Shown: positions 45,035-64,000 of the stretch, in pieces
Position numbering within the stretch: position 1 is the first letter of the stretch
How the letters are laid out: the number at the start of each line of letters is the position of its first letter
Source: Actinomycetota bacterium
Lineage (GTDB): Bacteria > Actinomycetota > UBA4738 > HRBIN12
Assembly (NCBI GenBank): GCA_035519495.1
Contig: DATIWE010000061.1
Coordinates: 1,832-65,831, forward strand
DNA: 64,000 bases
Direction: 5' to 3'
Notes under the pieces: model-generated
Told to the model about the DNA's origin: nothing
Seen by the model: only the letters and a program-made list of their open reading frames with translations
Database searches by the model: none
Made by a program: the position numbers and the translations under genes

Positions 45035-46939
45035 GTGGCGATCACCGACGAAGCGACGAGCGAGACGGCCCCGAGGCTCCGACCGAGCCAAGCCCGCGCG
45101 GCGATCGACCTCGCGTTGCTCGTCGCGCTCGGGGCGGTCGTGCTGCGCGTGGCACTGTGGCCGACGGAGATCCACGGGTACCCCTTCGCGGTCGGCCCCG
45201 ACATGCCCGTGTACCTGTGGTGGGCGCGCGTCGGTGCGGCCGGTGGGATCTCGCTGGTCGGCGAGCGCCCCGGAACGCCCGCGCTGATCCCGACACTCGC
45301 CGCGGCGCTCGGGACCGGCATCGTCCCGGCACTCGCCGGGCTTCAGTACGCGCTCGGACCGGCGATCGCGCTCGCCGTCGCCGCGCTCGTGCGCGGCCGC
45401 GGCGCGTTGCCCCGCGGTGGATGGCTCGCCGCGACGATCCTCAGTGCCGCCTGGGCGACCTTCATGGCCGGGGGGTACCTCGCGAACCTCGCCTTCGTGG
45501 CGGCGTTCCTCGCCGCGGCGGCGTTGCTCGCACGCCGCACGCGCCGGGGGGCGCTCGCCGCGGCCGTACTGCTCGGCGGCGGCGGGCTCGCCCACCCGGA
45601 GTTCTTCGCGTTCGGCGTGTTGGTGCTGCTGGTGACCGCGGCGTGGGCCTGGTGGCGCGACCGGCGCCTGTCGCTCGGCACCGACGCGGGCCGCGTGCTG
45701 GCGGCGACCGGCGGCGGCATCGCCCTGGTGCTATGCGGGCTGCTCGCGAGCCTGATCGGACCGGCGCGGCTCGGCGGCGACACCTCGATGGACGGCCTGC
45801 TCCGGCGGACCGGCCAACTCGACGCGCTGCGGCGCAGCTACGTCGACCGGCTCGTCCTGAACTGGCGCCGCTACGCGCCGTTCATGACGAGCGCGCTCGC
45901 GATCGCTGGGGCGTTCCGGGCCCGCGGGTTCACGCGGCGGTTCCTCGTCGCCTGGGTCGTCCTCACCGCGATCATGGTTCCGGTCGGCGCCGTCACGGGT
46001 TGGTTCCCGCCGGACCGGATCGTGATGTTCGCGTTCTGCCTCCCGGCGCTCGCGGGGTTCGGGCTGGTGTGGATCGGCGACCGGCTCGGCCGCTGGTGGC
46101 TCGCGTGGCCGGCCGGCATCGTCCTCGTGACGTTGATCGTGCTTCCCGCGCTGCGCGACTGGCGGGCGCAGGAGACGTACGTGTCGCCGGCCGAACTCGA
46201 GCAGGTGACGCTCGCCGGACGCATCGCCGCGACCACCCCGCCCGGCACCGCGCTCGTGTTCACCACCGACAGCCCGGACACGCAGGTGGCACTGTTCCGC
46301 CGCTCGCACCTGCTGAACGTGGCCCGCGCCGGCGTGCCGCCCGAACGCGCCGACGACGTCTTCACGTTCCTCGGCCGGCCGCACGACCTCCTGGCCGGCC
46401 GGCCGAGCGAGCGGAACGATGCCGCCTACGACGCGGCCTCGGCGGATTCGCTCGCCCAGATCCCACCGGGCCCGCGGGTCGTCTTCGTGATCGGCGAGGT
46501 GAACGATCCCGCGGCGCTCGGCGCCTCGGGTCTGACGCGCTGGTCGGCCGGCCTCGCGAGCACGGCGGCCGACCCGCGACGCCTGCCTGCCTCGGCCGGC
46601 GAGCTGCGCGCGTCGGACCCCTCGACGATCGAACGGACCACGGTGCTGACCTTCGCCATGCTGGTGACCCTCGGCCTCGGCTGGGGGTGGTGGGCGATGG
46701 GCGACCTCCCCGGCGGATTCGCCATCGCGCCCGCGTTCGGTGCGGCGACGCTGACGCTCGCGGCGCTCGGCCTAGAGCGGATCGGAGCCGACCTCGAGCG
46801 CGGGACGACCGCCGCCCTCGCGTGCGTGCTCGCGGGCGGCATCGGCTACGCGCTGCTCGTCGCCCGGCTGCTCGGGCGCCGACGCCGGCGCGCCGCCCCG
46901 GGGCTCGTCCTCGAAGGGCCATCCGAACGCGATGCGTGA
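45035..46939 (+). CDS. Multi-pass membrane protein, possible GT-C fold glycosyltransferase
   Basis: About 13 hydrophobic segments, first-loop motif GPDMPVYLWW, a soluble C-terminal domain and a final 3-TM extension. Confidence 0.6.
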   Translation: MAITDEATSETAPRLRPSQARAAIDLALLVALGAVVLRVALWPTEIHGYPFAVGPDMPVYLWWARVGAAGGISLVGERPGTPALIPTLAAALGTGIVPALAGLQYALGPAIALAVAALVRGRGALPRGGWLAATILSAAWATFMAGGYLANLAFVAAFLAAAALLARRTRRGALAAAVLLGGGGLAHPEFFAFGVLVLLVTAAWAWWRDRRLSLGTDAGRVLAATGGGIALVLCGLLASLIGPARLGGDTSMDGLLRRTGQLDALRRSYVDRLVLNWRRYAPFMTSALAIAGAFRARGFTRRFLVAWVVLTAIMVPVGAVTGWFPPDRIVMFAFCLPALAGFGLVWIGDRLGRWWLAWPAGIVLVTLIVLPALRDWRAQETYVSPAELEQVTLAGRIAATTPPGTALVFTTDSPDTQVALFRRSHLLNVARAGVPPERADDVFTFLGRPHDLLAGRPSERNDAAYDAASADSLAQIPPGPRVVFVIGEVNDPAALGASGLTRWSAGLASTAADPRRLPASAGELRASDPSTIERTTVLTFAMLVTLGLGWGWWAMGDLPGGFAIAPAFGAATLTLAALGLERIGADLERGTTAALACVLAGGIGYALLVARLLGRRRRRAAPGLVLEGPSERDA

Positions 46940-48406
46940 GCGCAGATCCGAGATCACGGCGATCACGAACACGATGAGCACCGGCACGACGAGCCAATCG
47001 CCGATCGCGACGTTCAACGCGAAGCCACCCGGATAGCGGTAGGCCTCGGCCGACCAGAGGGTCACGCCCAGCAGGGCGCCGGTCGCGATCAGGGCGGTGC
47101 GCGGCACCTTCGGGAGGACCCACACGAGCGGCATCGCCCACACCACGTACCAGGGCAGGAGCACCGGCCCGAGGAGCGTCAGGAGCACGAGCGCCCACCC
47201 CCACGCCGCGGCCTGTTCGCGCGGCGGCATCTCCCCTCCCGCGGCGCGACGCCACACCGCACGGGCCAGCATCGCCAGGCACGCGAACAGCAGCACCGCC
47301 GCCGCGACCCGGACCACCCAGCCGAGCGTGTGGAACGTCAGCGCGTCGAACCCCCGCGCGAGCACGCTCGCCGGAGCGAGCCAGCCCTCGTGCCCCGCCA
47401 GCTCGAGCATCCCGAGCGTCGGGTCATGCAGCTGGAAGTAGGGGAACGACAACACGACCGTGATCGCGGCCGGCACCCCGATCGCGGCCAACGCCGTCCG
47501 GATGCGCCGTTCGCGCGGGACACTCCCGATGCACCACACCAGGAGCAGCAGCAGCGGGAGCACGGCCGTCGCCTTCACGAGCGCGCCGAGCGTGAGGACC
47601 GCGATCGCGAGCAGCCGGTGGTCGGCGGCCACCAACGCGAACGCGCCCGCGATCGCGAGCGCGACCAGCAGGTCGTTGTGCCCGCTCGCGACCGAGTGGA
47701 ACAGGATCACCGGGTTCGCACCGAAGGCCACCAGCGCGAACACCGTGCGCTCCGGCCAGAGCCGCCGCACCGTCCACACGATCACGCCGCAGGTGGCGAG
47801 GCTCGCCGCGATCGCCAGGTAGCGGTACGCGTCGACGTGATCGGCCGGCAGCGGGAGGAACCTCGACAGGACGGCGGACAGCGACGTCCAGGCCGGTCCG
47901 TACACCGCCGGGGTGTCGACCCAGCGCGGGCCGACGTAGTTCCACAGGAGATCGCCCGTGTGATCGAGCGGCGTCTGCACGTAGGGGTTGCCGCCGTAGA
48001 TCGCGGCGATCCGGCCGTAGTACGCGTAGGAGTAGACGTCGTTGGAGAACAGGAGCGGCTCGAACAGCAGCAGCGCGTGGGCGCCGATCACGAGCACGGC
48101 GGCCGCGGCCAGGCGGATGGTGCCGCGGAACGCCTCGCGCAGCAGGACGAGGAACCCCGCCGTCGCGAGCAGCGCGACGACCACGCCGATCGCCAGCTGG
48201 GGATCGCCGTGCACCACATCGAGATGCAGCGCGGTCGCGAGCTGGCGCAGCGGACCCCTCGGCCGTCCGTTCGGCGTCAAGGTCGGCTGGTACGGGGAGC
48301 GGGGCGTGGCGCCGACGACCGCCATCACGAACAGCCCGGCCGCCGCGAACGCGAGGCTCCGCACCGCGGCCGAGGAGGTCCCGCGTGTGCGAGTGCCCGT
48401 TCCCAC
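46772..48406 (-). CDS. Polyprenol-phosphomannose-dependent alpha-1,6-mannosyltransferase-like (MptA/MptB, GT-C)
   Basis: LFSNDVYSYAYYGRI, PAVYGP, NPVIL...GHND and VLLPWY motifs. Confidence 0.8.
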   Translation of the reverse strand: MGTGTRTRGTSSAAVRSLAFAAAGLFVMAVVGATPRSPYQPTLTPNGRPRGPLRQLATALHLDVVHGDPQLAIGVVVALLATAGFLVLLREAFRGTIRLAAAAVLVIGAHALLLFEPLLFSNDVYSYAYYGRIAAIYGGNPYVQTPLDHTGDLLWNYVGPRWVDTPAVYGPAWTSLSAVLSRFLPLPADHVDAYRYLAIAASLATCGVIVWTVRRLWPERTVFALVAFGANPVILFHSVASGHNDLLVALAIAGAFALVAADHRLLAIAVLTLGALVKATAVLPLLLLLVWCIGSVPRERRIRTALAAIGVPAAITVVLSFPYFQLHDPTLGMLELAGHEGWLAPASVLARGFDALTFHTLGWVVRVAAAVLLFACLAMLARAVWRRAAGGEMPPREQAAAWGWALVLLTLLGPVLLPWYVVWAMPLVWVLPKVPRTALIATGALLGVTLWSAEAYRYPGGFALNVAIGDWLVVPVLIVFVIAVISDLRSRIAFGWPFEDEPRGGAPASAPEQPGDEQRVADAAREHAREGGGRPALEVGSDPL

Positions 48407-48455
48407 GATGCGTCCGACGGTAGCACCGGACCGCCGGCCGAGGAGGTCCCGCGTG
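48367..48455 (+). repeat. Perfect 21-bp direct repeat
   Basis: CGGCCGAGGAGGTCCCGCGTG at 48367-48387 and 48435-48455. Confidence 0.9.
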
Positions 48456-48468
48456 GGAGGATGCCCGC

Positions 48469-49212
48469 ATGCCGCGCGGCATGAAGCTCGGGCTCGGGAT
48501 CGCGCTCACGTTGATCGGTCTGTTCATGACGATCGGCGGCGTCGCGATCATGGCGTGGGTCGGGCTGGACGGGTCGTTCGCCCTGTCCGAGTCACGAGCC
48601 GTGAGCGACGGGAACGCTCTCGTGTTCGACGACATCGACATCGAGCGGCACCTGCCCTCCAGCGGCAACCTCGCCACGACGCTCGAGCTGCGTGTCCACG
48701 GGAGCCACAAGGACGTCTTCATCGGGGTCGGCCCGGCGGCCCTCGTCGCACGCTACCTGCGCGGCGTGCCCGTCGACCGGATCGTGCAGGTGAACTGGGC
48801 CGGCGGCGTCCGCACCGAATCGGTCCCCGGTTCGGCGGCGCCCCCGGGTCCGCCCGCGACGAGGAAGCTCTGGACCGTGCAGGCGCAGGGGTCCACGGCG
48901 TCGATCCACTGGACCCTCGCGAACGGCGATTGGATCGTCGTGATCATGAACGCGGACGCGTCGGCGGGGGTGGACGTCACCGGCTCGGCGTCGGTCACGC
49001 TGCCGCTGCTCGGACCCATCGGCGCCGTCGTCCTCGTGGTGGGTCTCGGGTTCCTCGTCGCGGGCATCGTGCTGACGATCAGCGGAACGAAGATGGCGCC
49101 GGCGTCGGCCTCCGGCACGGCGCCTCCCGACGTCGCCGGCCCGGAGGACGGGCGTCGGGACGTGCCCGCGGGCACGGCTGAGGCGCCGCCGCCGAGGCCG
49201 GACACGGGCTGA
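48469..49212 (+). CDS. Hypothetical membrane protein (TM - extracytoplasmic beta domain - TM)
   Basis: RBS GGAGG; DVFIGVG and WIVVIMNADAS segments between two hydrophobic helices. Confidence 0.75.
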   Translation: MPRGMKLGLGIALTLIGLFMTIGGVAIMAWVGLDGSFALSESRAVSDGNALVFDDIDIERHLPSSGNLATTLELRVHGSHKDVFIGVGPAALVARYLRGVPVDRIVQVNWAGGVRTESVPGSAAPPGPPATRKLWTVQAQGSTASIHWTLANGDWIVVIMNADASAGVDVTGSASVTLPLLGPIGAVVLVVGLGFLVAGIVLTISGTKMAPASASGTAPPDVAGPEDGRRDVPAGTAEAPPPRPDTG

Positions 49213-49244
49213 AGGACGCGCGGCTTCGCTGCTACGCTCCGAAG

Positions 49245-49544
49245 ATGGACGAGAACCGGGGGCCCGCGCTGGGGATCGCCGCTGTGGCGATCGTGTTCCT
49301 GGCGTTGCTGCCCTTCCTGATCCCGACGCTCATCTGGCTCGTCCTCACCGGGTACGCGATCACGAAGGCGATCGGCTCAGCGCCCGACTCGGCGGACGGC
49401 ACCGCCGTGCTCCTGGCCGTTGTCGCGATCGTGACGTTCTTCACGCTCGCGATCGCCGGCGCGATCTACGCGATCGGCCGCTCGATGACGCCGAAGAAGC
49501 GGCGCGACCGCGACGCCGGCATCCCGAGCCAGCTGCCCGCCTAA
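49245..49544 (+). CDS. Hypothetical 99-aa 2-TM protein
   Basis: Two hydrophobic helices; -10 TACGCT 6 nt before the ATG. Confidence 0.7.
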   Translation: MDENRGPALGIAAVAIVFLALLPFLIPTLIWLVLTGYAITKAIGSAPDSADGTAVLLAVVAIVTFFTLAIAGAIYAIGRSMTPKKRRDRDAGIPSQLPA

Positions 49545-50326
49545 CGGGCCCGGGCCGCCCAGCGCCCGTCCCGCCGCTCGACCGCGACGTCCATCTCGAA
49601 GCACGCCGAGAGGGCGCCCTCCGACACCACGTCGTCGACCGGTCCCGCCGCGAAGACCCGGCCCCGCCGGAGCAGCGCGCCGTGCGTGACGGTCGGCGGG
49701 ATCTCCTCGAGGTGGTGGGTCGCGAGGAGCGTGGTCGGCCCGTCGCGGCGTTCGGCGATCGACGACATCGCCGATAGCAGCCGTTCGCGGGCGGGCAGAT
49801 CGAGCCCGGCGGCCGGCTCGTCGAACAGCACGAGCGGGCGGGCGCCGAACAGCGCACGGGCGATCAGGATGCGCTGCCGCTCGCCGAGAGAACACGCCGC
49901 CAGCGGGCGAAGCGCGAGCTCGCCGCAGCCCATGTCCGTCAACGCGACCAGCGCCCGTTCCCGATCCGCGGAGCCGAGCTCCTGCGACCACGTCTCCAGG
50001 ACGGACGCCTTGCCGGTGAGCACGACGTCGATCGCCCTGGCCTGCGGACGAAGACGGTCCGCGACGGCGTGCGACACGTGCCCGATGCGCCGCCGGAGCC
50101 GGCGAACGTCCGTCCGGCCGAGCTCGACGCCCAGCACCTGCACGGCGCCGGCCGACGGCTGGCGCCACGCGCCGGCGAGCGACAGCAGCGTCGTCTTCCC
50201 GCTGCCGTTCGGTCCGAGGAACACCCACTGCTGTCCCGTTCGCACGCACAGATCGACCGGGCCGAGGATCGTGCGCCCGTCGACGCGCACGGTCGCACCC
50301 TCGAAGGCGACGGCCTCGCTGTTCAC
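49541..50326 (-). CDS. ABC ATP-binding protein (ModF/YlmA-like), no permease nearby
   Basis: GPNGSGKTT, SLGERQ, FDEP and THH motifs. GTGA overlap with the ABC-F gene. Confidence 0.85.
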   Translation of the reverse strand: MNSEAVAFEGATVRVDGRTILGPVDLCVRTGQQWVFLGPNGSGKTTLLSLAGAWRQPSAGAVQVLGVELGRTDVRRLRRRIGHVSHAVADRLRPQARAIDVVLTGKASVLETWSQELGSADRERALVALTDMGCGELALRPLAACSLGERQRILIARALFGARPLVLFDEPAAGLDLPARERLLSAMSSIAERRDGPTTLLATHHLEEIPPTVTHGALLRRGRVFAAGPVDDVVSEGALSACFEMDVAVERRDGRWAARAR

Positions 50327-51915
50327 CGGACGGCCACGCCGTACGGCGACTCGAGCAGTTCGGTGACCGTGCCGTCCTCGTCGAAGAACAGGAACCGGTC
50401 GAGCAGCCGCATGAACCACCGATCGTGCGTGACCGCCACCACCGTCCCTTCGTACCGACCCAGCGCCTCCTCCAGGGCGTCGGCGGACGCGACGTCGAGG
50501 TTGTCCGTCGGCTCGTCGAGCAGCAGCATCGTCGGCGAATCGATCTCCATCAGGAGGATCTGGAACCGCGCTTGTTGTCCGCCCGAGAGCAGGCTGTACG
50601 GGTTCTGAGCAACGTGATCGAGCTCGTACCGGCGGAGCGCGGACATCGCCCTCGTGCGGTCGAGGCCCTTCGACCGGAGGACATCGCCGATCGGTTTGTC
50701 GCCGACGTCGGCGCGCTCGTGCGATTGCGCGAAATGCCCGGGCGTCACGCGTGCACCGAGCGTCCACTCGCCGCCGTGGACGGTCTCCTCACCGGCGAGC
50801 AGCCGCAGGAAGTGCGTCTTCCCGGTTCCGTTCGGACCCACGACGCCGACGCGCTCGCCGAAACGCATCTCCGTATCGAACGGCTGCACGATGCCGGCGA
50901 TCGACAGCCCGCGCGCCCGGAACGCGACCTTGCCGGTCCGTCCGCCCGCCAGGCGCATGCGCACCTCCTGGTCGGCGGCTCGCTCCGGCGGCGTCTCCCG
51001 ATCCTCGAACCGCTCCAGCCGGTGCTCTGCGGAGCGGGCCTTCGAGGCCCAGCCGTCGTTGTACGCCGCCTTCCGCTTCATCTCCTTCACCATGTCGCTC
51101 AGTCGCCGGTGCTCCTCCTCGTAGCGACGATGCCGCTCGTCGAGCCGCTCCAGGCGAGCCTCCCGCGCGTCGGCGTACGTGGAGAAGCCGCCCACATGGG
51201 TCCACGCCGCTCGCCCTTCCAGCGTCACGATCCTCGTGGCGGCGCGATCGAGCACCGTCCGATCGTGCGAGACGAACAGGATCGCCCGAGGATCGTCGCG
51301 GATCGTGGTCTCGAGCCACTCCTTCCCCGCCATGTCCAGCGCGTTGTCGGGCTCGTCCAGCAGCAGCACGTCGAACGCCGAGGAGAACACGATCTCCAGC
51401 GCCAGCCGCTTGCGCTCGCCGCCGGACAGCGTGGTGATCGAGCGATCGGCGCTCTCGGGGAAGCCGCCGCCGAACGCCCGATGCGCGCAGCGGTCCCACA
51501 GGACCTCGGCGCGGTATCCGCCAGCCTGCTCCCACGCGGACAGCGCGGCCGCGTACGCCAGCTGGGCGTGCTCGTCGGGATCCGCGGCCAGCCGATCCTC
51601 CGCCGCACGCAGCCGCTCGGCCGCCTGACGGACCGGCTGCTCGCTGTAGGCGAGCAGGAACTCCCGCAGGGGGATCGGCCCGTCGGTCGATCCGATGAAT
51701 TGCCGCATCAGCCCGACGCGGCCGTCGACATGGATCGAGCCGGCGGCGGGCCGCTCCTCGGCGGCGATCAACCGCAGCAACGTGGTCTTGCCGATGCCGT
51801 TCGCGCCGATCAGGCCGACGTGCTCGCCGTCGGGCACGCGGAAGGACACCTCCTGGAAGAGGGTCCATCCGCCCGGCAGCGCGACGGTCACGTCCGTCAG
51901 TTCGACGAAGCCCAT
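50323..51915 (-). CDS. ABC-F family ATPase
   Basis: Two NBDs (GANGIGKTT/LSGGE/LLDEP/SHDR and GPNGTGKT/LSGGQ/LLDEP/THDR) joined by a helical linker, no TM segments. Confidence 0.93.
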   Translation of the reverse strand: MGFVELTDVTVALPGGWTLFQEVSFRVPDGEHVGLIGANGIGKTTLLRLIAAEERPAAGSIHVDGRVGLMRQFIGSTDGPIPLREFLLAYSEQPVRQAAERLRAAEDRLAADPDEHAQLAYAAALSAWEQAGGYRAEVLWDRCAHRAFGGGFPESADRSITTLSGGERKRLALEIVFSSAFDVLLLDEPDNALDMAGKEWLETTIRDDPRAILFVSHDRTVLDRAATRIVTLEGRAAWTHVGGFSTYADAREARLERLDERHRRYEEEHRRLSDMVKEMKRKAAYNDGWASKARSAEHRLERFEDRETPPERAADQEVRMRLAGGRTGKVAFRARGLSIAGIVQPFDTEMRFGERVGVVGPNGTGKTHFLRLLAGEETVHGGEWTLGARVTPGHFAQSHERADVGDKPIGDVLRSKGLDRTRAMSALRRYELDHVAQNPYSLLSGGQQARFQILLMEIDSPTMLLLDEPTDNLDVASADALEEALGRYEGTVVAVTHDRWFMRLLDRFLFFDEDGTVTELLESPYGVAVR

Positions 51916-52000
51916 CGCTGCAGCATACGAAGCCCGTTCGGAGCGGGTTGCAGCTTCGTTGGCCGACCGATAGCGTCGGGTACTAGGGAGGGACGCAGGC

Positions 52001-53746
52001 GTGGAGATACGGTTGCGGCGGTCCCCCGGGGTCGTTCTGGGAACTGCTGCGTTGGTCCCGTACGGTACGGTACGGGCACCCATGCGCTCTTCGCCGACCC
52101 GTTCACGTCCCTTGGCGCCCAGCACGAAGCGCGCGATCGCGGCGTCCGTCGCCAGCATGGCGTTCGTCGCGCTCGTCTCCGCGACGCCGAACTCGCCGTT
52201 CAATCCGATCCTGCCCGCGACCGAGCGCGCGTTCGGTCCGCTGCGGTGGATCTCGTCGCTACTCGGCCTCGGTCACCTCGACCCGGCCGGCCTCATGCTC
52301 GTCGGGCTGCTCGCGACCACGTCGGCCGCGATCGGCTTCCTGCTGATCCTCCGCGAAGCATGGAACCGGCGGATCTCGTTGAAGATGGTGGTACTGCTGG
52401 CGATCGGCTTCCACCTGCTGGTGCTGATGCTGCCGCTGCTGTTCTCCCGTGACGTCTACAGCTACGCCTACTACGGACGCATCGTCAGCACGTACGGCGG
52501 CAACCCCTACGTCCTGACGCCGCGCGACTTCCCGCTGAACTCGCTGTGGTCGCTCACGTGGCCCGGCTGGCGCGGCACGCCGTCGGTGTACGGCCCCCTG
52601 TTCACATGGATGTCCGCGGCGCTCACGGGGACCGCCAAGAGCCTCCGGAGCCTGATCACCGGCTTCCAGCTGCTCGCCGCGGTCGCGAGCCTCGGCACGA
52701 TCGCGATCGTGGCCCACACGGTCCGCAAGGTGCGGCCCGATCGTGCGACCTTCGCGGTCGCGATCATCGGGCTGAACCCGATCGTGATCTTCCACGTGGT
52801 CGGCGGCGGCCACAACGACATGCTCGTCGCCTTCTTCGTGGCCGCGGCCGTCGCGTTCCTGTTCTCCGAGCACGAGCTCCTGTCCGCGATCTCGCTCGCG
52901 CTCGGCATGTCGGTGAAGGCGAGCGCGATCGTGCCGCTCGCGTTGCTCATGGTCGCGATCATCGCGAGCGCCTCGCCGGAGCGGCGGCGGCGCGTGCTGG
53001 TCACGTACGGCGCCGTCGTCGGCGGGGTGTGGCTCGCGTTGGCGCTCCCCTTCCTCCAGGCGACGAACCCGACCCTCGGCCTGATGGAGGTCTCCGGCCA
53101 CGACTCGTGGATGGCGCCGGGCCAGCTCGTGGTTCGGGCCGCCTCCGGCCTCGGCGGCCTGCTGGGCGGCAACGCCTGGCGCGCCCCGGCCGCAACCGGC
53201 GCCCGGGTCGCGCTGTTCGGCATCTCGCTCGTCGCCGTGATCGCGATCGGCCGCCGCATCTGGCGGAGCCCCGAGGCGCGGACCCCGGTCGCGCTCACCG
53301 CCGCGTGGGGGTGGGCGTTCCTCGCGGTGATGCTGCCCTCGCCGGTCCTGTTCACCTGGTACCTCGTCTGGGCCCTCCCGCTCGCGTGGGCGCTGCCGAA
53401 GATCGCGCGCCGCGGGATGGTGATCCTCTCGGCGTTCTTCGTCGTGACGCAGCTCGTCACGGAGTCCTCGGAGCTGCCGGCGGTCCTGCGCTCGGTCAAG
53501 CTCCCGTTCGGGCACCCGATCGCGATCGCCGTGTGCCTGTGGATCGGCGCCGACCTCGTGCGCCGGTTGCGGCGCGGCACGCCGCTCGAGGCCGAGACCG
53601 GCGAGCCGCGGTTCGGCGACGACTTCGAAGCCGGGCCGACCAAGCCCGAGGAGACGGAACCCGCGCTGGAGAGCCCGACCCTCGTGCCGGTGCGGACGGG
53701 CGGCGTCGCCGCCGCGAGCCCGGCCTCGATGCTGCACTTCCGCTGA
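52001..53746 (+). CDS. Second MptA/MptB-like GT-C mannosyltransferase
   Basis: LFSRDVYSYAYYGRI, PSVYGP, NPIVI...GHND and VLFTWY motifs. RBS GGAGG before GTG 52001. Confidence 0.8.
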   Translation: MEIRLRRSPGVVLGTAALVPYGTVRAPMRSSPTRSRPLAPSTKRAIAASVASMAFVALVSATPNSPFNPILPATERAFGPLRWISSLLGLGHLDPAGLMLVGLLATTSAAIGFLLILREAWNRRISLKMVVLLAIGFHLLVLMLPLLFSRDVYSYAYYGRIVSTYGGNPYVLTPRDFPLNSLWSLTWPGWRGTPSVYGPLFTWMSAALTGTAKSLRSLITGFQLLAAVASLGTIAIVAHTVRKVRPDRATFAVAIIGLNPIVIFHVVGGGHNDMLVAFFVAAAVAFLFSEHELLSAISLALGMSVKASAIVPLALLMVAIIASASPERRRRVLVTYGAVVGGVWLALALPFLQATNPTLGLMEVSGHDSWMAPGQLVVRAASGLGGLLGGNAWRAPAATGARVALFGISLVAVIAIGRRIWRSPEARTPVALTAAWGWAFLAVMLPSPVLFTWYLVWALPLAWALPKIARRGMVILSAFFVVTQLVTESSELPAVLRSVKLPFGHPIAIAVCLWIGADLVRRLRRGTPLEAETGEPRFGDDFEAGPTKPEETEPALESPTLVPVRTGGVAAASPASMLHFR

Positions 53747-59623: not shown

Positions 59624-60184
59624 ATGCCGGGCCGGGTGATGGATCGTGACGAGGCCCACGCGTTCGCCCGCGAGCGGTGCCTGAAGGAGACGACGTTCCG
59701 GCACCTCGTCTCGGTCGAGGGGGTGATGCGCGCACTCGCGCGGCACTTCGACGAGGAGCAGGACCTGTGGGGCCTCACCGGCCTGTTCCACGACCTGGAT
59801 CAGGACCACACCGGCGACGACGGGGCGCAGCACGCGAGGCTCGCCGCCGAGTGGCTCGCGGAGGCCGACGTCGACGACCGCGTGATCAACGGGGTGCTCG
59901 CGCACGCGTACGCGGAGTACCGGACCGATCGGATGTCGCGGGCGGTGGTGCACGCCGACGCCGTGGCCGGGCTGTTGGTCGCATCCGCGCTCGTTCGGCC
60001 CGAGAAGGCGACCGGCATGAAGGTCTCGAGCGTGAAGAAGAAGCTCAAGGAGAAGGCGTTCGCGCCCGGCGTCAACCGCGACGAGGTCACCGACGTCGAG
60101 GAGCGGATCGGCCTGCCGCTCGACGAGTTCCTCGCTGTGTCGATCGAGGGACTGCAGGACGTCGCCCCCGAGATCGACCTCTGA
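59624..60184 (+). CDS. HD-domain metal-dependent hydrolase (COG2316-like)
   Basis: H...FHDLD...H...LAH...D and KKKLKEKAFAPGVNRD motifs. Confidence 0.85.
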   Translation: MPGRVMDRDEAHAFARERCLKETTFRHLVSVEGVMRALARHFDEEQDLWGLTGLFHDLDQDHTGDDGAQHARLAAEWLAEADVDDRVINGVLAHAYAEYRTDRMSRAVVHADAVAGLLVASALVRPEKATGMKVSSVKKKLKEKAFAPGVNRDEVTDVEERIGLPLDEFLAVSIEGLQDVAPEIDL

Positions 60185-60192
60185 GAGCGACC

Positions 60193-61569
60193 GTGAACGG
60201 GTTCCGGACGATCATCGAGCCGTTCCGGATCCACTCGGTGGAGCCGCTCCGGTTCCTCACCGAGGACGAGCGCCGGTCGAAGATCCGCGAGGCCGGCTAC
60301 AACCTGTTCAACGTGCACGCCGACGACGTGCTGATCGACCTGCTGACCGACTCGGGCACCGGCGCGATGAGCCGCGACCAGTGGGCCGCGATCCAGCACG
60401 GCGACGAGAGCTACGCGGGCTCGCCGTCGTGGTTCGTGTTCCTGAAGGCCGTGCAGGAGCTGTTCCCGTTCCCACACGTGATCCCGACGCATCAGGGACG
60501 CGCCGCGGAGAAGATCCTGTTCTCGGCGATCGCCGGGGCCGGCACGGTGGTGCCGAACAACACCCACTTCGACACGACGCGGGCCAACGTCGAGTCGACC
60601 GGCGCCGAGGCCGTCGACCTCGTGATCCCCGAGGGACGCGACCCGGCCGCGCTGCACCCGTTCAAGGGCAACATGGATCTCGCCGCGCTCGAGCGACTGC
60701 TGGCCGAGCGCGGCGCCGACGTGCCGGTCGTGGTGGTCACGATCACGAACAACTCCGGCGGCGGCCAGCCCGTCTCACTGGAGAACCTCCGCGGGGTCCG
60801 CGCGCTGTGCGACCGCTCCGGCGTGCCGTTGTTCCTCGACGCGTGCCGCTTCGCCGAGAACGCGTGGTTCGTGAAGACGCGCGAGCCGGGCTATGCGGAC
60901 GCCGCGGTGCCCGACATCGTGCGCGAGATGGCGTCGCTGGCCGACGGCATGACGATGTCCGCGAAGAAGGATCCGATGGCGAACATCGGCGGCTGGCTCG
61001 CGATGCGCGACGCCGCCTGGGCCGAGCGCTGCCGGAACCTGCTGATCCTGACCGAAGGGTTCCCGACGTATGGCGGGCTCGCCGGCCGCGACCTCGAGGC
61101 GATCGCGCAGGGACTGCGCGAATGCGTCGACGAGCAGTACCTCCGCTACCGGATCCGTTCGACCGAATACCTGGCCGATGCCCTCGTCGACGCCGGCGTG
61201 CCGATCGTGCGGCCGGCGGGCGGTCACGCGGTGTACGTGGACGCCCGCGCGCTGCTGCCGCACGTGCCGCCGCTCGCGTACCCGGGCCAGACGCTCGCGG
61301 TCGCGCTGTACGAGGCCGGCGGGATCCGCAGCTGCGAGATCGGCACGGTGATGTTCGGCATGAAGCCGGACGGTCGCGAGGAGCCTGCCGCGACCGACCT
61401 GGTCCGCCTGGCGATCCCGCGCCGGACGTACACGCAGAGCCACATCGACTACGTGATCGAGGTGGTCACCTCCGTGGCGGCGCGCGCCGCCGATCTCCCC
61501 GGGTACCGGATCGTGGAGCAGGCGCCGCAGCTCCGGCACTTCACCGCCCGGTTCGAGCCCCTGGCCTGA
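60193..61569 (+). CDS. tnaA: Tryptophanase
   Basis: EPFRI, DLLTDSGT, THQGR, SAKKD (PLP Lys). NTHFDTT and LRHFTARF carry the Asp and His found in tryptophanase where tyrosine phenol-lyase has Thr and Phe. Confidence 0.88.
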   Translation: MNGFRTIIEPFRIHSVEPLRFLTEDERRSKIREAGYNLFNVHADDVLIDLLTDSGTGAMSRDQWAAIQHGDESYAGSPSWFVFLKAVQELFPFPHVIPTHQGRAAEKILFSAIAGAGTVVPNNTHFDTTRANVESTGAEAVDLVIPEGRDPAALHPFKGNMDLAALERLLAERGADVPVVVVTITNNSGGGQPVSLENLRGVRALCDRSGVPLFLDACRFAENAWFVKTREPGYADAAVPDIVREMASLADGMTMSAKKDPMANIGGWLAMRDAAWAERCRNLLILTEGFPTYGGLAGRDLEAIAQGLRECVDEQYLRYRIRSTEYLADALVDAGVPIVRPAGGHAVYVDARALLPHVPPLAYPGQTLAVALYEAGGIRSCEIGTVMFGMKPDGREEPAATDLVRLAIPRRTYTQSHIDYVIEVVTSVAARAADLPGYRIVEQAPQLRHFTARFEPLA

Positions 61570-61585
61570 CGCCTCGCGAGGCGTC
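61568..61585. terminator. 18-bp perfect palindrome after tnaA
   Basis: GACGCCTCGCGAGGCGTC overlapping the stop codon. Confidence 0.55.
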
Positions 61586-61609
61586 CGGGTCGCCGGGTAC
61601 CCTGAGCCC

Positions 61610-64000
61610 ATGCGCATCGCGTTCGTCTCGACCTACCCGCCGCGCCGCTGCGGCATCGCGACGTTCACCTCGGACCTGATCCGAGCCGTCCGCGAGGCCG
61701 ACCCTCGGACCCAGGCCCGCGTGGCCGCGATCGACGAGCGGAACGCCGTGCGGGCCTACGGCTCGGAGGTCCGCTGGCGGATCCGCCAGGGCAGCGCGAT
61801 GCCCTACCGGGCGGCGGCGCACGAGATCGACCGGTCGAACGCCGACATCGTCTGCGTCCAGCACGAGTTCGGCCTCTACGGTCTATGGAAGGGCGGCGGG
61901 TTCGTCGGCGACCACTGGATCGAGGGCACGTACGAGGACCACCTCACGCCGTTCCTCGAGGAGCTGAAGCACAAGCCGGCGCTCGTGACGTTGCACACCG
62001 TGCTGCCCGATCCGTCCCCGGCGATCCGCGACGCGGTCCGGTCGATCGCCGATGCCGCACACGGGCTCGTGGTCATGGCCGAGACCGCGGTCACGATCCT
62101 CGACGAGGTCTACGGCGTCACCGCGAAGCCGACGGTGATCCCCCACGGGATGCCGCACATCGAGCCGCAGGGCCGCCGCCGGCTGAAGGCGAAGCTCGAC
62201 CTCGACGGGCGACAGATCATCTCGACCTTCGGGTTGGTGGGCCCCGGGAAGGGCCTCGAGTACGTGATCGAGGCGATGCCCGAGATCGCGGGGCGCCACC
62301 CGGACGCGCTCTACCTGATCGCCGGCCAGACCCACCCGGAACTGCTCCGCCAGCGCGGCGAGGAATACCGCAACAAGCTGATCCAGCTGGTCGAGGAGCT
62401 CGAACTGACGGACAACGTCCTGTTCGTGAACCAGTACCTCGAACAGAAGGACATCATCGAGTACCTGCTGGCGACCGACGTCTACGTGACGCCGTACCTC
62501 GACCCCAACCAGATCACGAGCGGCACGTTGTCGTACGCGCTCGGGGCCGGCAAGGCGGTGGTCTCCACGCCGTACCTGCACGCGCTCGAGGCGCTGGACA
62601 ACGACCGGGGGCTCCTCGTGGAGTTCCGCTCGCCGCAGAGCATCGCGGACGCCGTGATCCGGATCCTCGACGACCCGAAGCTGAAGGGGCGCCTGGAGAA
62701 GAACGCGTACCGCTACGCGAACCAGGCCACGTGGCCGAAGACCGGCGCTCGCTTCCTGTCCGCGATGGAAGAGCTGGTGGCCGAGCACGCGCCGGCGCCG
62801 AAGGCACGCCGTTCCGAGCGTGCGACGCTCAAGATCGCGCACCGGGTGCACGCGAACCCGCTCATCACGCCGGCGAGCGTGACGCCGTCGCAGCCGGGGT
62901 TCGAGGTGATCTCGACGATCAACCCCGGCGTGACGAAGCTCGGGGACGAGGTCGTGATGCTGGTGCGGGTGGCCGAGCGTCCACGACGTGATGCCCAGCC
63001 CGACCCGGACGCCCAGATGATCGACCTCTCCGGCTCGCGGCCGCGCCCCGTCCCGCTGCCGGGCGGCCTCCAGGCGGATCAGCTGATCGGGATGGCGTAC
63101 CTGGACACCGAGCTGGAGCCGCCGAGCGTCGTGATCGGCTACGTCCCGAAGGACCTGCCGGGGCTCGACCTGTCGGATCCTCGGACGATCCGCTACCGGA
63201 ACGCGGCCGGCGGGTTCACGCCGGGCCAGGACGAGTTCACCGACTACCTGTCGCACATCTCGCACCTGCGTCTGGCGCGGAGCACCGACGGGCTCACCTT
63301 CACCGTCGACCCGGATCCGACGGTCGTGCCCTCGACGGCGCTCGAGGAGTACGGGGTCGAGGACCCCCGGATCACGTTGCTCGACGGCGTGTATCAGATC
63401 ACCTACGTGGCCGCGAGCCGCCTGGGCATCTCGACGGCCCGGCTCAGCACCACCGACTTCGTGGCCTTCGAACGGCACGGCACGATGCTGCAGCCCGACC
63501 AGAAGGACGTGGTGCTGTTCCCCGAACGCGTGGGCGGCCGCTACCTGGCCTTCACGCGTCCGATGCCGGGCTCGTTCGGTCGTGTCCTGGGGCTCTGGCT
63601 GGCGGAGAGCGACGACCTGGTCCACTGGGGGAATCCGCGCCCGATCGCGACCCCGCGGCACGGGATGTGGGACGAGATGCGGATCGGCGCCTCGCTGGTG
63701 CCGATCCGCGTGGACGAGGGCTGGCTCGAGCTCTACCACGGGGTCGACCGCCAGAACCGCTACGGGATGGGCGCGATCCTCCTGGACGCCGGGGATCCCA
63801 CGAAGGTCCTCGCGCGGTCACCGAAGCCGCTGATGCTCCCCGAGGCCGACTACGAGCACGACGGGTTCCTCGAGGACGTCGTGTTCCCCTCCGGTCACAT
63901 CGACCTCGGCGGCGGGACGATCCGGGTCTACTACGGCGCCGCCGACGCCACGCTCTGCGCGGCGGACCTCGATCTGGCCGACGTCCTCGGAGCCCTGGTG
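61610..64000 (+). CDS. Partial (runs off right edge) GT4 glycosyltransferase - GH130 mannoside phosphorylase/hydrolase fusion
   Basis: Not in the ORF track. One open frame from ATG 61610: STYPPRRCGIATF, QHEFG, TLHT, TFGLVGPGKG, TPY, SGTLSYA (GT4), then NPG, YGVEDPRIT, KDVVLFP, TRP, YHG, VVFPSG, YYGAAD (GH130). Confidence 0.9.
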   Translation, partial: MRIAFVSTYPPRRCGIATFTSDLIRAVREADPRTQARVAAIDERNAVRAYGSEVRWRIRQGSAMPYRAAAHEIDRSNADIVCVQHEFGLYGLWKGGGFVGDHWIEGTYEDHLTPFLEELKHKPALVTLHTVLPDPSPAIRDAVRSIADAAHGLVVMAETAVTILDEVYGVTAKPTVIPHGMPHIEPQGRRRLKAKLDLDGRQIISTFGLVGPGKGLEYVIEAMPEIAGRHPDALYLIAGQTHPELLRQRGEEYRNKLIQLVEELELTDNVLFVNQYLEQKDIIEYLLATDVYVTPYLDPNQITSGTLSYALGAGKAVVSTPYLHALEALDNDRGLLVEFRSPQSIADAVIRILDDPKLKGRLEKNAYRYANQATWPKTGARFLSAMEELVAEHAPAPKARRSERATLKIAHRVHANPLITPASVTPSQPGFEVISTINPGVTKLGDEVVMLVRVAERPRRDAQPDPDAQMIDLSGSRPRPVPLPGGLQADQLIGMAYLDTELEPPSVVIGYVPKDLPGLDLSDPRTIRYRNAAGGFTPGQDEFTDYLSHISHLRLARSTDGLTFTVDPDPTVVPSTALEEYGVEDPRITLLDGVYQITYVAASRLGISTARLSTTDFVAFERHGTMLQPDQKDVVLFPERVGGRYLAFTRPMPGSFGRVLGLWLAESDDLVHWGNPRPIATPRHGMWDEMRIGASLVPIRVDEGWLELYHGVDRQNRYGMGAILLDAGDPTKVLARSPKPLMLPEADYEHDGFLEDVVFPSGHIDLGGGTIRVYYGAADATLCAADLDLADVLGALV

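Follow-up and report, generated by a model that had tools for sequence, protein, structure and literature searches.

A gene at the end of the 64,000-nucleotide stretch of Actinomycetota DNA analysed here (the window; positions 1832-65831 of its contig, in an assembly of 88 contigs, 2.63 Mb and 88% completeness) encodes a protein in which a glycosyltransferase (GT) domain of family GT4 is joined to a domain of family GH130. Comparison with homologous loci indicates that this protein combines, in fused form, two of the three parts of a conserved module, consisting of a GT4 protein with a Q-X7-Y motif, a protein of a further family that we call X, and a GH130 protein. The fusion is lineage-restricted, yet it points to a widespread and unstudied mannoside module that probably handles a new intracellular mannose compound. 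The original prediction for this DNA, made from the sequence of the window, named neither the downstream partner X nor the wider GT/X/GH130 module.

Structure and conservation of the GT4-GH130 gene

In the open reading frame (ORF) listing the fusion gene is a 3'-open frame on the plus strand with 797 amino acids inside the window. On the parent contig this frame meets a TAG codon two codons beyond the window edge (64007-64009 in window-equivalent numbering); it thus ends 6 nt past the window and encodes a complete protein of 799 amino acids (Table 1). The lack of a stop inside the window had correctly been given as the reason why the earlier ORF track missed the gene. Pfam placed Glycos_transf_1 (PF00534; 76 bits, cut-off 26.4) and Glyco_trans_1_4 (PF13692; 60 bits) on the same residues 192-368, and Glyco_hydro_130 (PF04041; 171.8 bits, cut-off 26) on residues 545-793. 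ORF, Pfam domains and contig stop agree on the uninterrupted frame of GT-B and GH130 domains that had been proposed, and the linker between them was found where it had been placed, near position 62780. The N-terminus, MRIAFVSTYPP, reads as the first strand of the GT domain, with no signal peptide, and the gene product is predicted to be a cytoplasmic two-domain enzyme. The names of such fusion proteins in databases are automatic ("glycosyltransferase", "GH130 family protein", "GH43/DUF377 ... glycosyltransferase").

We aligned 119 full-length fusion orthologues and calculated identities relative to the window protein. Mean identity was 83% for the GT half, 73% for the GH130 half and 43% for the linker; 50% of the columns in the GT half were at least 98% identical, and the linker contained no conserved column. 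Both domains are intact and under strong purifying selection. Uninterrupted orthologues of 794-804 amino acids are carried by the other members of the genus and by additional genera within the family, so the fusion is not an assembly artefact.

Association of GT, X and GH130 across phyla

The X gene starts 44 nt after the stop codon of the fusion gene (contig positions 65885-66937, equivalent to 64054-65106 of the window) and encodes 351 amino acids. Homology connects its product with the C-terminal domain that GT-X proteins of ~760 amino acids carry. Eighty named loci from more than 12 phyla were retrieved with a three-sequence GT alignment and scanned with hidden Markov models of GT, X and GH130. 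They comprised 12 GT-GH130 fusions, 51 GT-X fusions and 17 loci in which the GT stands alone. X was the next gene in 10 of the 12 GT-GH130 fusion loci, the other two contigs ending too early. A GH130 gene lay in the flank of 37 of the 51 GT-X fusions, and for the GT alone X was adjacent at 13 of 17 loci and GH130 in the flank at 7 of 17. Overall, X was present at 74 and a GH130 gene at 56 of the 80 loci. The three families are found together in Actinomycetota, Chloroflexota, Planctomycetota, Verrucomicrobiota, Acidobacteriota, Bacillota, Cyanobacteriota, Patescibacteria, archaea and others. Together, the GT-GH130 fusion and the much commoner GT-X fusion provide Rosetta-stone evidence that three un- or poorly characterised families would act on one substrate.

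The gene content of these loci points towards mannose. The module GH130 genes of loci L055 and L083 and the GH130 domain of the window were scanned, and all three gave β-1,2-mannobiose phosphorylase models as best matches. ManC and phosphomannomutase adjoin the module at 5 Bacillota-type loci (TIGR01479, 501 bits). A canonical GT4 with an EX7E motif recurs as a neighbour of the module at 21 loci, and in a genome of the same order (G027) the operon reads GT / X / GH130 / GH130 / canonical GT4.

Two further observations were made at these loci. In a Bacillota metagenome-assembled genome (L052:10266-13421) the GT-X gene is directly followed by a stop-free frame of 1052 amino acids that resembles ManC (GMP/PMI, TIGR01479) and phosphomannomutase; it may be one fused gene or a read-through of two genes, and comparable ORFs are found at L037, L046, L049 and L063. 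In many phyla a second GH130-like type stands beside GT-X: ORFs of ~450-580 amino acids with an N-terminal extension, in which the GH130 match is confined to the C-terminal 230-250 residues with scores of 135-160 (L036, L038, L040, L043, L048, L051, L056, L059, L066, L077, L083, L087, L088 and others).

The GH130 half resembles β-1,2-mannobiose phosphorylases

Among 18 GH130 matches of the GH130 half to Protein Data Bank (PDB) entries, the closest were Lin0857 (1.3e-76) and Uhgb_MS (8e-73), followed by Teth514_1788 and Teth514_1789; β-1,4 enzymes ranked after these. The best NCBIfam model was NF050092 (BtaManbiosPhlase, the β-1,2-mannobiose phosphorylase equivalog), with 367.5 bits and thus under its cut-off of 550. 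Lin0857 of Listeria innocua and Uhgb_MS of a human gut metagenome are GH130_4 β-1,2-mannobiose phosphorylases for which weak GDP-mannose (GDP-Man) transferase activity is reported (PMC12814180).

Residue roles described for Uhgb_MS (PMC12814180) were transferred to the GH130 half via a HMMER alignment. R47, R88, E136, D137, K184, R202 and R242 of Uhgb_MS correspond to R453, R525, E584, D585, K632, R650 and R691, respectively, all of which are invariant in 119 of 119 full-length orthologues. The motifs EDPR, QKD, TRP, MRIG and YHG, to which the original prediction had drawn attention, exist and contain D585, K632, R650, R691 and H710. Its assignment to phosphorylases rather than hydrolases is supported by the alignment of D585 with the catalytic Asp of Uhgb_MS and of K632, R650 and R691 with its basic phosphate binders, in place of which hydrolases have acidic residues; in the comparison with characterised GH130 enzymes the phosphorylase residue set is complete. 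The pair R453/E584 is present at the +1 subsite, as in β-1,2-mannoside-specific GH130 enzymes (R47/E136 in Uhgb_MS), and an insertion at about residues 458-530 aligns with the GH130_4 lid (about 50 amino acids) of Lin0857 and Uhgb_MS, R525 being the lid arginine. In both homologues this lid holds the products to a degree of polymerization (DP) of 2-3 (PMC12814180). The GH130 half therefore shares with these enzymes the catalytic Asp, the +1 Arg/Glu pair, the Lys/Arg/Arg triad that binds phosphate, and a lid with the same Arg. Lin0857 and Uhgb_MS differ from it in being single-domain proteins of ~350 amino acids and in their loop-L2 residues, whereas here GH130 is fused behind a GT4 domain. Taken together, the GH130 half is predicted to be of phosphorylase type and of β-1,2-mannoside type, and is a relative of GH130_4 but not a proven equivalog.

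The GT half belongs to a Q-X7-Y subfamily of GT4

With the single sequence of the GT half, structure matches were weak (PimA, MshA and PimB', about 1e-7). A profile of its subfamily matched cyanobacterial sucrose-phosphate synthase (SPS, PDB 6kih) at 2.5e-24, and MshA, PimA and PimB' as well, over a range of 1e-17 to 1e-24, which makes membership in GT4 secure. The subfamily carries the signatures PPRRCGIATFT, QHEFGLYG, GPGKG (with K214) and GQTHPE. When the GT half was tested for the EX7E motif of GT4 enzymes, the motif was found to read Q301-X7-Y309: E274 and E282 of PimA align to N300 (or Q301) and to Y309. K202 of PimA is kept as K214, and the position of PimA R196 is occupied by Gly or Leu; R254, which is invariant in the subfamily, might stand in for it. 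PimA, PimB', MshA and cyanobacterial SPS thus resemble the GT half in their GT-B family and phosphate-binding Lys, but the GT half differs from PimA-type GT4 enzymes in Q-X7-Y, in the absence of an R196 equivalent and in its own motifs CGIATFT, QHEFG and GQTHPE.

An alignment of 8 subfamily members (A1; identity down to 33%) was then used to judge these replacements. Q301, S304, L307, K214, H85, H129, H179, E217, E251, R254 and D290 are invariant in all 8 members, position 309 is Tyr in 7 and Glu in 1, and an acidic residue precedes Q301 by 1-3 positions in all 8; among the 119 fusions both Q301 and Y309 are invariant. Since these residues are invariant across the subfamily and the GT half is strongly conserved in fusions, Q-X7-Y does not represent decay, and we consider the GT half a probable functional member of a distinct, large Q-X7-Y subfamily of GT4. 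A dead domain was considered but is not supported, since no other part of the protein is as conserved as the GT half. The earlier description of this half as a retaining transferase using nucleoside diphosphate sugars (NDP-sugars) is thus borne out by the profile as far as a GT-B fold of family GT4 is concerned; it is no textbook GT4, the EX7E motif and the R196 equivalent being replaced.

The loss of the EX7E motif in favour of Q-X7-Y and of the PimA R196 equivalent would also fit a GT half that is not an NDP-sugar transferase, being either a retaining, phosphorylase-like enzyme that uses α-mannose 1-phosphate (α-Man1P) directly and turns β- into α-mannosides via channelled Man1P, or a non-catalytic binding or scaffold domain. 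One chain would then carry a producer and a consumer of Man1P, and family GT4 does include retaining phosphorylases (PMC8950772), with trehalose phosphorylases using glucose 1-phosphate. A binding or scaffold role sits poorly with the GT half being the most conserved part, in which K214, H85, H129, H179, E217, E251, R254, D290 and Q301 are invariant across phyla. Against both versions stand the acidic residue that always lies 1-3 positions ahead of Q301 and the GDP-mannose genes that accompany the module in some phyla. Moreover, a Tyr at the second EX7E position is also found in glycogen synthases that use ADP-glucose. On balance we regard a GT half outside NDP-sugar chemistry as distinctly unlikely.

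Protein X has an (α/α)6-barrel fold

X and the C-terminal domain of the ~760-amino-acid GT homologues had no match in Pfam or NCBIfam. The X family is very large, and its members are annotated "hypothetical" or "glycosyl transferase family 1, partial". An AlphaFold model of X computed with a 72-sequence alignment was confident (predicted local distance difference test 92.6, predicted template modelling score 0.92) and has the fold of a six-hairpin (α/α)6 barrel. In Foldseek its nearest structure was YPO2471 of Yersinia pestis (PDB 7tem; template modelling (TM) score 0.86), which the X profile also finds by sequence (4e-27); a literature search on YPO2471 returned nothing relevant. Further Foldseek matches were N-acetylglucosamine 2-epimerase, mannose isomerase, cellobiose 2-epimerase and YihS (TM 0.6-0.7), and GH76 α-mannanases (TM 0.6).

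D47-D48, R51, W287 and E322 are invariant or near-invariant in the 72 aligned sequences, none of which share an invariant His. Catalysis by acylglucosamine 2-epimerases (AGE) uses His, and an adjacent Asp pair is the catalytic arrangement of GH76. We considered X as a classical AGE epimerase: the fold fits, but the absence of an invariant His argues against AGE-type epimerase chemistry. Cellobiose 2-epimerase and mannose isomerase of AGE fold are like X in the (α/α)6 barrel and in their partnership with GH130 in mannan catabolism; X differs in lacking the invariant His and in having the uncharacterised YPO2471 as its closest structure.

Proposed function of the module

GT4 enzymes retain configuration, giving α products from α-linked NDP-sugars, and GH130 enzymes interconvert α-Man1P and β-mannosides; the same bond thus cannot be made and broken by the two halves. 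The bifunctional build-and-break mannose cycler of the original prediction survives in its two intact domains and its phosphorylase-type GH130 half. Its cycling of a single bond does not, owing to the α versus β chemistry.

In the scheme that we favour, a single small glycoside of the cytoplasm would be worked on by the two halves one after the other, at different bonds. The GT half would use an NDP-sugar, most likely GDP-Man, to make an α-linked mannoside that serves as acceptor or primer. To this mannoside the GH130 half would reversibly add β-1,2-mannose, or remove it, with α-Man1P and phosphate, its lid keeping the product short (DP 2-3), and X would then trim, rearrange or recycle the product. 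The net effect would be the synthesis and energy-conserving turnover of a mixed α/β mannoside, a solute or a small reserve. Sequential action on one glycoside is suggested by the repeated pairwise fusions, by the absence of transporters and secreted mannanases near the fusion and by the conserved lid. What goes beyond intact, genetically linked domains in these steps is what we infer, and we give the sequence from GT through GH130 to X on one small mixed mannoside an even chance of being right.

Intact halves, and GDP-mannose genes adjoining the module in some phyla, would also fit a self-contained, mannogen-like cycle in which the GT half draws on GDP-Man to assemble a mannoside or storage oligomer, this same compound then being phosphorolysed to Man1P by the GH130 half; β-1,2-type GH130 phosphorylases are reversible, and some use GDP-Man weakly (PMC12814180). 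The conserved GH130_4-type lid with R525, which restricts the substrates of homologues to DP 2-3 (PMC12814180), argues against such a cycle and also against the storage oligomer or polymer that had been envisaged. An α product of a GT4 enzyme, furthermore, would be unbreakable by the β-acting GH130 half. The mannosyltransferase/phosphorylases (MTPs, GT108) that turn over mannogen in Leishmania are built on a GH130-like five-bladed propeller. They are conceptually like the fusion in cytoplasmic synthesis and phosphorolysis of β-1,2-mannosides on such a propeller, but there both tasks fall to a single propeller family, which makes oligomers, with neither a GT-B domain nor a barrel partner. The analogy with Leishmania mannogen drawn in the original prediction needs correction, mannogen being made and degraded by GH130-like MTPs alone, and we consider a cycle on one and the same compound unlikely.

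A similar gene cluster is that of Thermoanaerobacter sp. X-514, in which Teth514_1785-1789 encode, besides a GT4 and a hypothetical protein, two GH130 β-1,2-mannoside phosphorylases and a Man1P guanylyltransferase (PMC4264767). It resembles the module in its kinds of genes: a β-1,2-type GH130, a GT4, a hypothetical protein of ~340 amino acids and a GDP-mannose enzyme. Unlike in the fusion, its genes are separate, its GH130 proteins are lid-less members of GH130_6, and an ABC transporter and a GH5 enzyme give it a catabolic flavour. Following the model of Chiku et al. for this cluster, GH130 could free Man1P from imported or recycled β-1,2-mannosides, a separate guanylyltransferase could make GDP-Man, and the GT could spend it on an unrelated glycoconjugate. 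The similar gene set of the Thermoanaerobacter cluster (two GH130, mpg, GT4 and a hypothetical protein) and the adjacency of ManC and phosphomannomutase at Bacillota-type loci are in line with such a relay. It is nevertheless improbable for the fusion: a transporter, a secreted mannanase and ManC are all absent near it here and in relatives, the module is retained in genomes of 1.3-1.9 Mb, and the covalent fusion, together with the repeated GT-X and GT-GH130 fusions, argues for one common substrate. Teth514_1785 and Teth514_1786 of the cluster are at most candidate members of the X and GT families.

Several points weigh against the sequential scheme. Donor, acceptor and product of GT, X and fusion are all deduced. 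Neither EX7E glutamate is present in the GT half, nor is the equivalent of PimA R196, so that canonical NDP-sugar chemistry is not assured. In the GH130 half, the loop-L2 residues P206/E207/N211 of Uhgb_MS, which are tied to GDP-Man use, are replaced by G/S/V, and a GDP-Man side activity is thus not inferable. The argument from the lid and its DP limit is borrowed from homologues that are 35-45% identical. GH130 was missing from the fetched flank at 24 of the 80 loci, partly through short contigs, and beside the module in this genome there is no ManC-type gene; the genome has three NTP_transferase genes with no assigned specificity.

Extended to the module as a whole, the sequential scheme leads to a more tentative proposal, which we consider possible without giving it preference: Q-X7-Y GT4, X and GH130 may form a widespread cytoplasmic machine that makes, sizes and phosphorolytically recycles a mixed α/β mannoside, as a stress solute or a small reserve. 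In prokaryotes it would be the counterpart to mannogen metabolism, assembled from different parts, with the fusion physically coupling both glycosyl-transfer steps. If its product were identified, a new intracellular mannoside could come to light, and thousands of entries now annotated "hypothetical" or "glycosyl transferase family 1" could be given a function; a possible yield is a one-polypeptide catalyst for α/β-mannosides from cheap Man1P.

Novelty of the domain combination

In CAZy as of November 2018, GH130-GT81 and GH130-GH130 were the sole multimodular GH130 architectures; more than 99% of (predicted) GH130 phosphorylases were monomodular, and a GT4 partner was not listed (PMC7660257). 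Like the fusion, GH130-GT81 and GH130-GH130 proteins join GH130 to another carbohydrate-active module, but the GT81 partner is a GT-A domain of glucosyl-3-phosphoglycerate-synthase type whereas the partner here is a GT4. Our literature search for a GT4-GH130 fusion or module found no description, and a GT4 fusion is unmentioned in a 2022 phosphorylase review and a 2025 dual-activity paper. A GT4 partner thus appears new for GH130 phosphorylases, which are regarded as nearly always single-module (PMC7660257). The mannosylglucosylglycerate pathway was also considered as a known system and rejected: its MggA is a rare GT4 of 530 amino acids with ~12 homologues, the paper is silent on GH130, and no search for GpgS near the module was made.

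Origin and spread of the fusion

The gene was present in 24 of 24 other genomes of the genus, mostly as one uninterrupted full-length match; in one of them the frame is in two pieces, and a few matches are cut by contig ends or split over two frames. Four or five additional genera within the family carry the fusion as well, and it was absent from other families of the order in a genome survey. Across 401 surveyed genomes of the phylum, with two candidates scored per genome and counts thus being lower bounds, at least 11 had the fused form, and in at least 21 the GT and GH130 matches were split but no more than 5 kb apart; many genomes with split GT and GH130 measure 1.3-1.9 Mb. Protein databases returned thousands of matches to the fusion. 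After clustering at 50%, one other representative (65% identity) spans both halves, and the remaining strong matches are GT-only (~400 or ~760 amino acids) or GH130-only. The comparison of fused and split homologues thus shows a lineage-restricted fusion, with split or GT-X forms commoner elsewhere.

In a maximum-likelihood tree of the 80 GT domains, the 12 fusions formed one clade (support 99/93; 100% of bootstrap trees), nested among split forms of Chloroflexota, Armatimonadota and a contig labelled Nitrosotalea, in which three neighbouring genes encode GT, GH130 and X. A nested single clade indicates one fairly recent stop loss between neighbouring genes, and the GT-GH130 fusion goes back to a single event within one Actinomycetota family.

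Three relatives have the frame of the fusion interrupted, in two or more pieces, by a TGA or a frameshift that lies close to the linker or within the GH130 half (G004:C1:154256-156635, G408:C9:189982-192025 and L020:7992-11460), which could reflect natural re-splitting, pseudogenisation or assembly error. The search of representatives also returned a protein of 971 amino acids (P0192) with three tandem GH130 domains, seen as three Pfam stretches.

Table 1. Features of the GT4-GH130 fusion gene in window coordinates.
Feature	Position	Strand	Basis
Fusion gene, GT4-GH130 (799 aa)	61610..64000	+	ORF and contig extension
GT4-type GT-B domain, residues 1-390	61610..62779	+	PF00534, PF13692, subfamily profile
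Q-X7-Y motif QITSGTLSY, Q301-Y309	62510..62536	+	Alignments to PimA, MshA, SPS
Interdomain linker AEHAPAPKARRSERATL, 17 aa	62780..62830	+	Sequence; variable among orthologues
GH130 domain, residues 408-799	62831..64000	+	PF04041, PDB matches, NCBIfam
Putative lid insertion, ~residues 458-530, including R525	62981..63199	+	HMMER alignment, residue mapping
EDPR, E584 (predicted +1 subsite) / D585 (predicted proton donor)	63359..63370	+	Mapped on Uhgb_MS E136/D137
Predicted phosphate binders K632, R650, R691	63503-63505, 63557-63559, 63680-63682	+	Equivalents of Uhgb_MS K184, R202, R242

Genomic neighbourhood of the fusion gene

Directly upstream of the fusion gene and on the same strand lie an HD-domain gene and a Beta_elim_lyase gene of the tryptophanase / threonine-aldolase family (59624-61569); the latter keeps its upstream position at 7 or more loci of the fusion clade. 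Between the stop codon of the lyase gene and the start of the fusion gene there is a perfect palindrome of 18 nt, GACGCCTCGCGAGGCGTC (61570-61590). Its fold energy is no better than that of shuffled sequence (z = -0.25), which gives no evidence for a terminator, and a promoter/terminator scan around the fusion yielded nothing usable. A few genes further upstream (45035-53746), gene calls of relatives indicate GT-C membrane glycosyltransferases of the MptA/MptB family, which suggests an additional, polyprenol-phosphomannose-dependent surface mannan in this organism.

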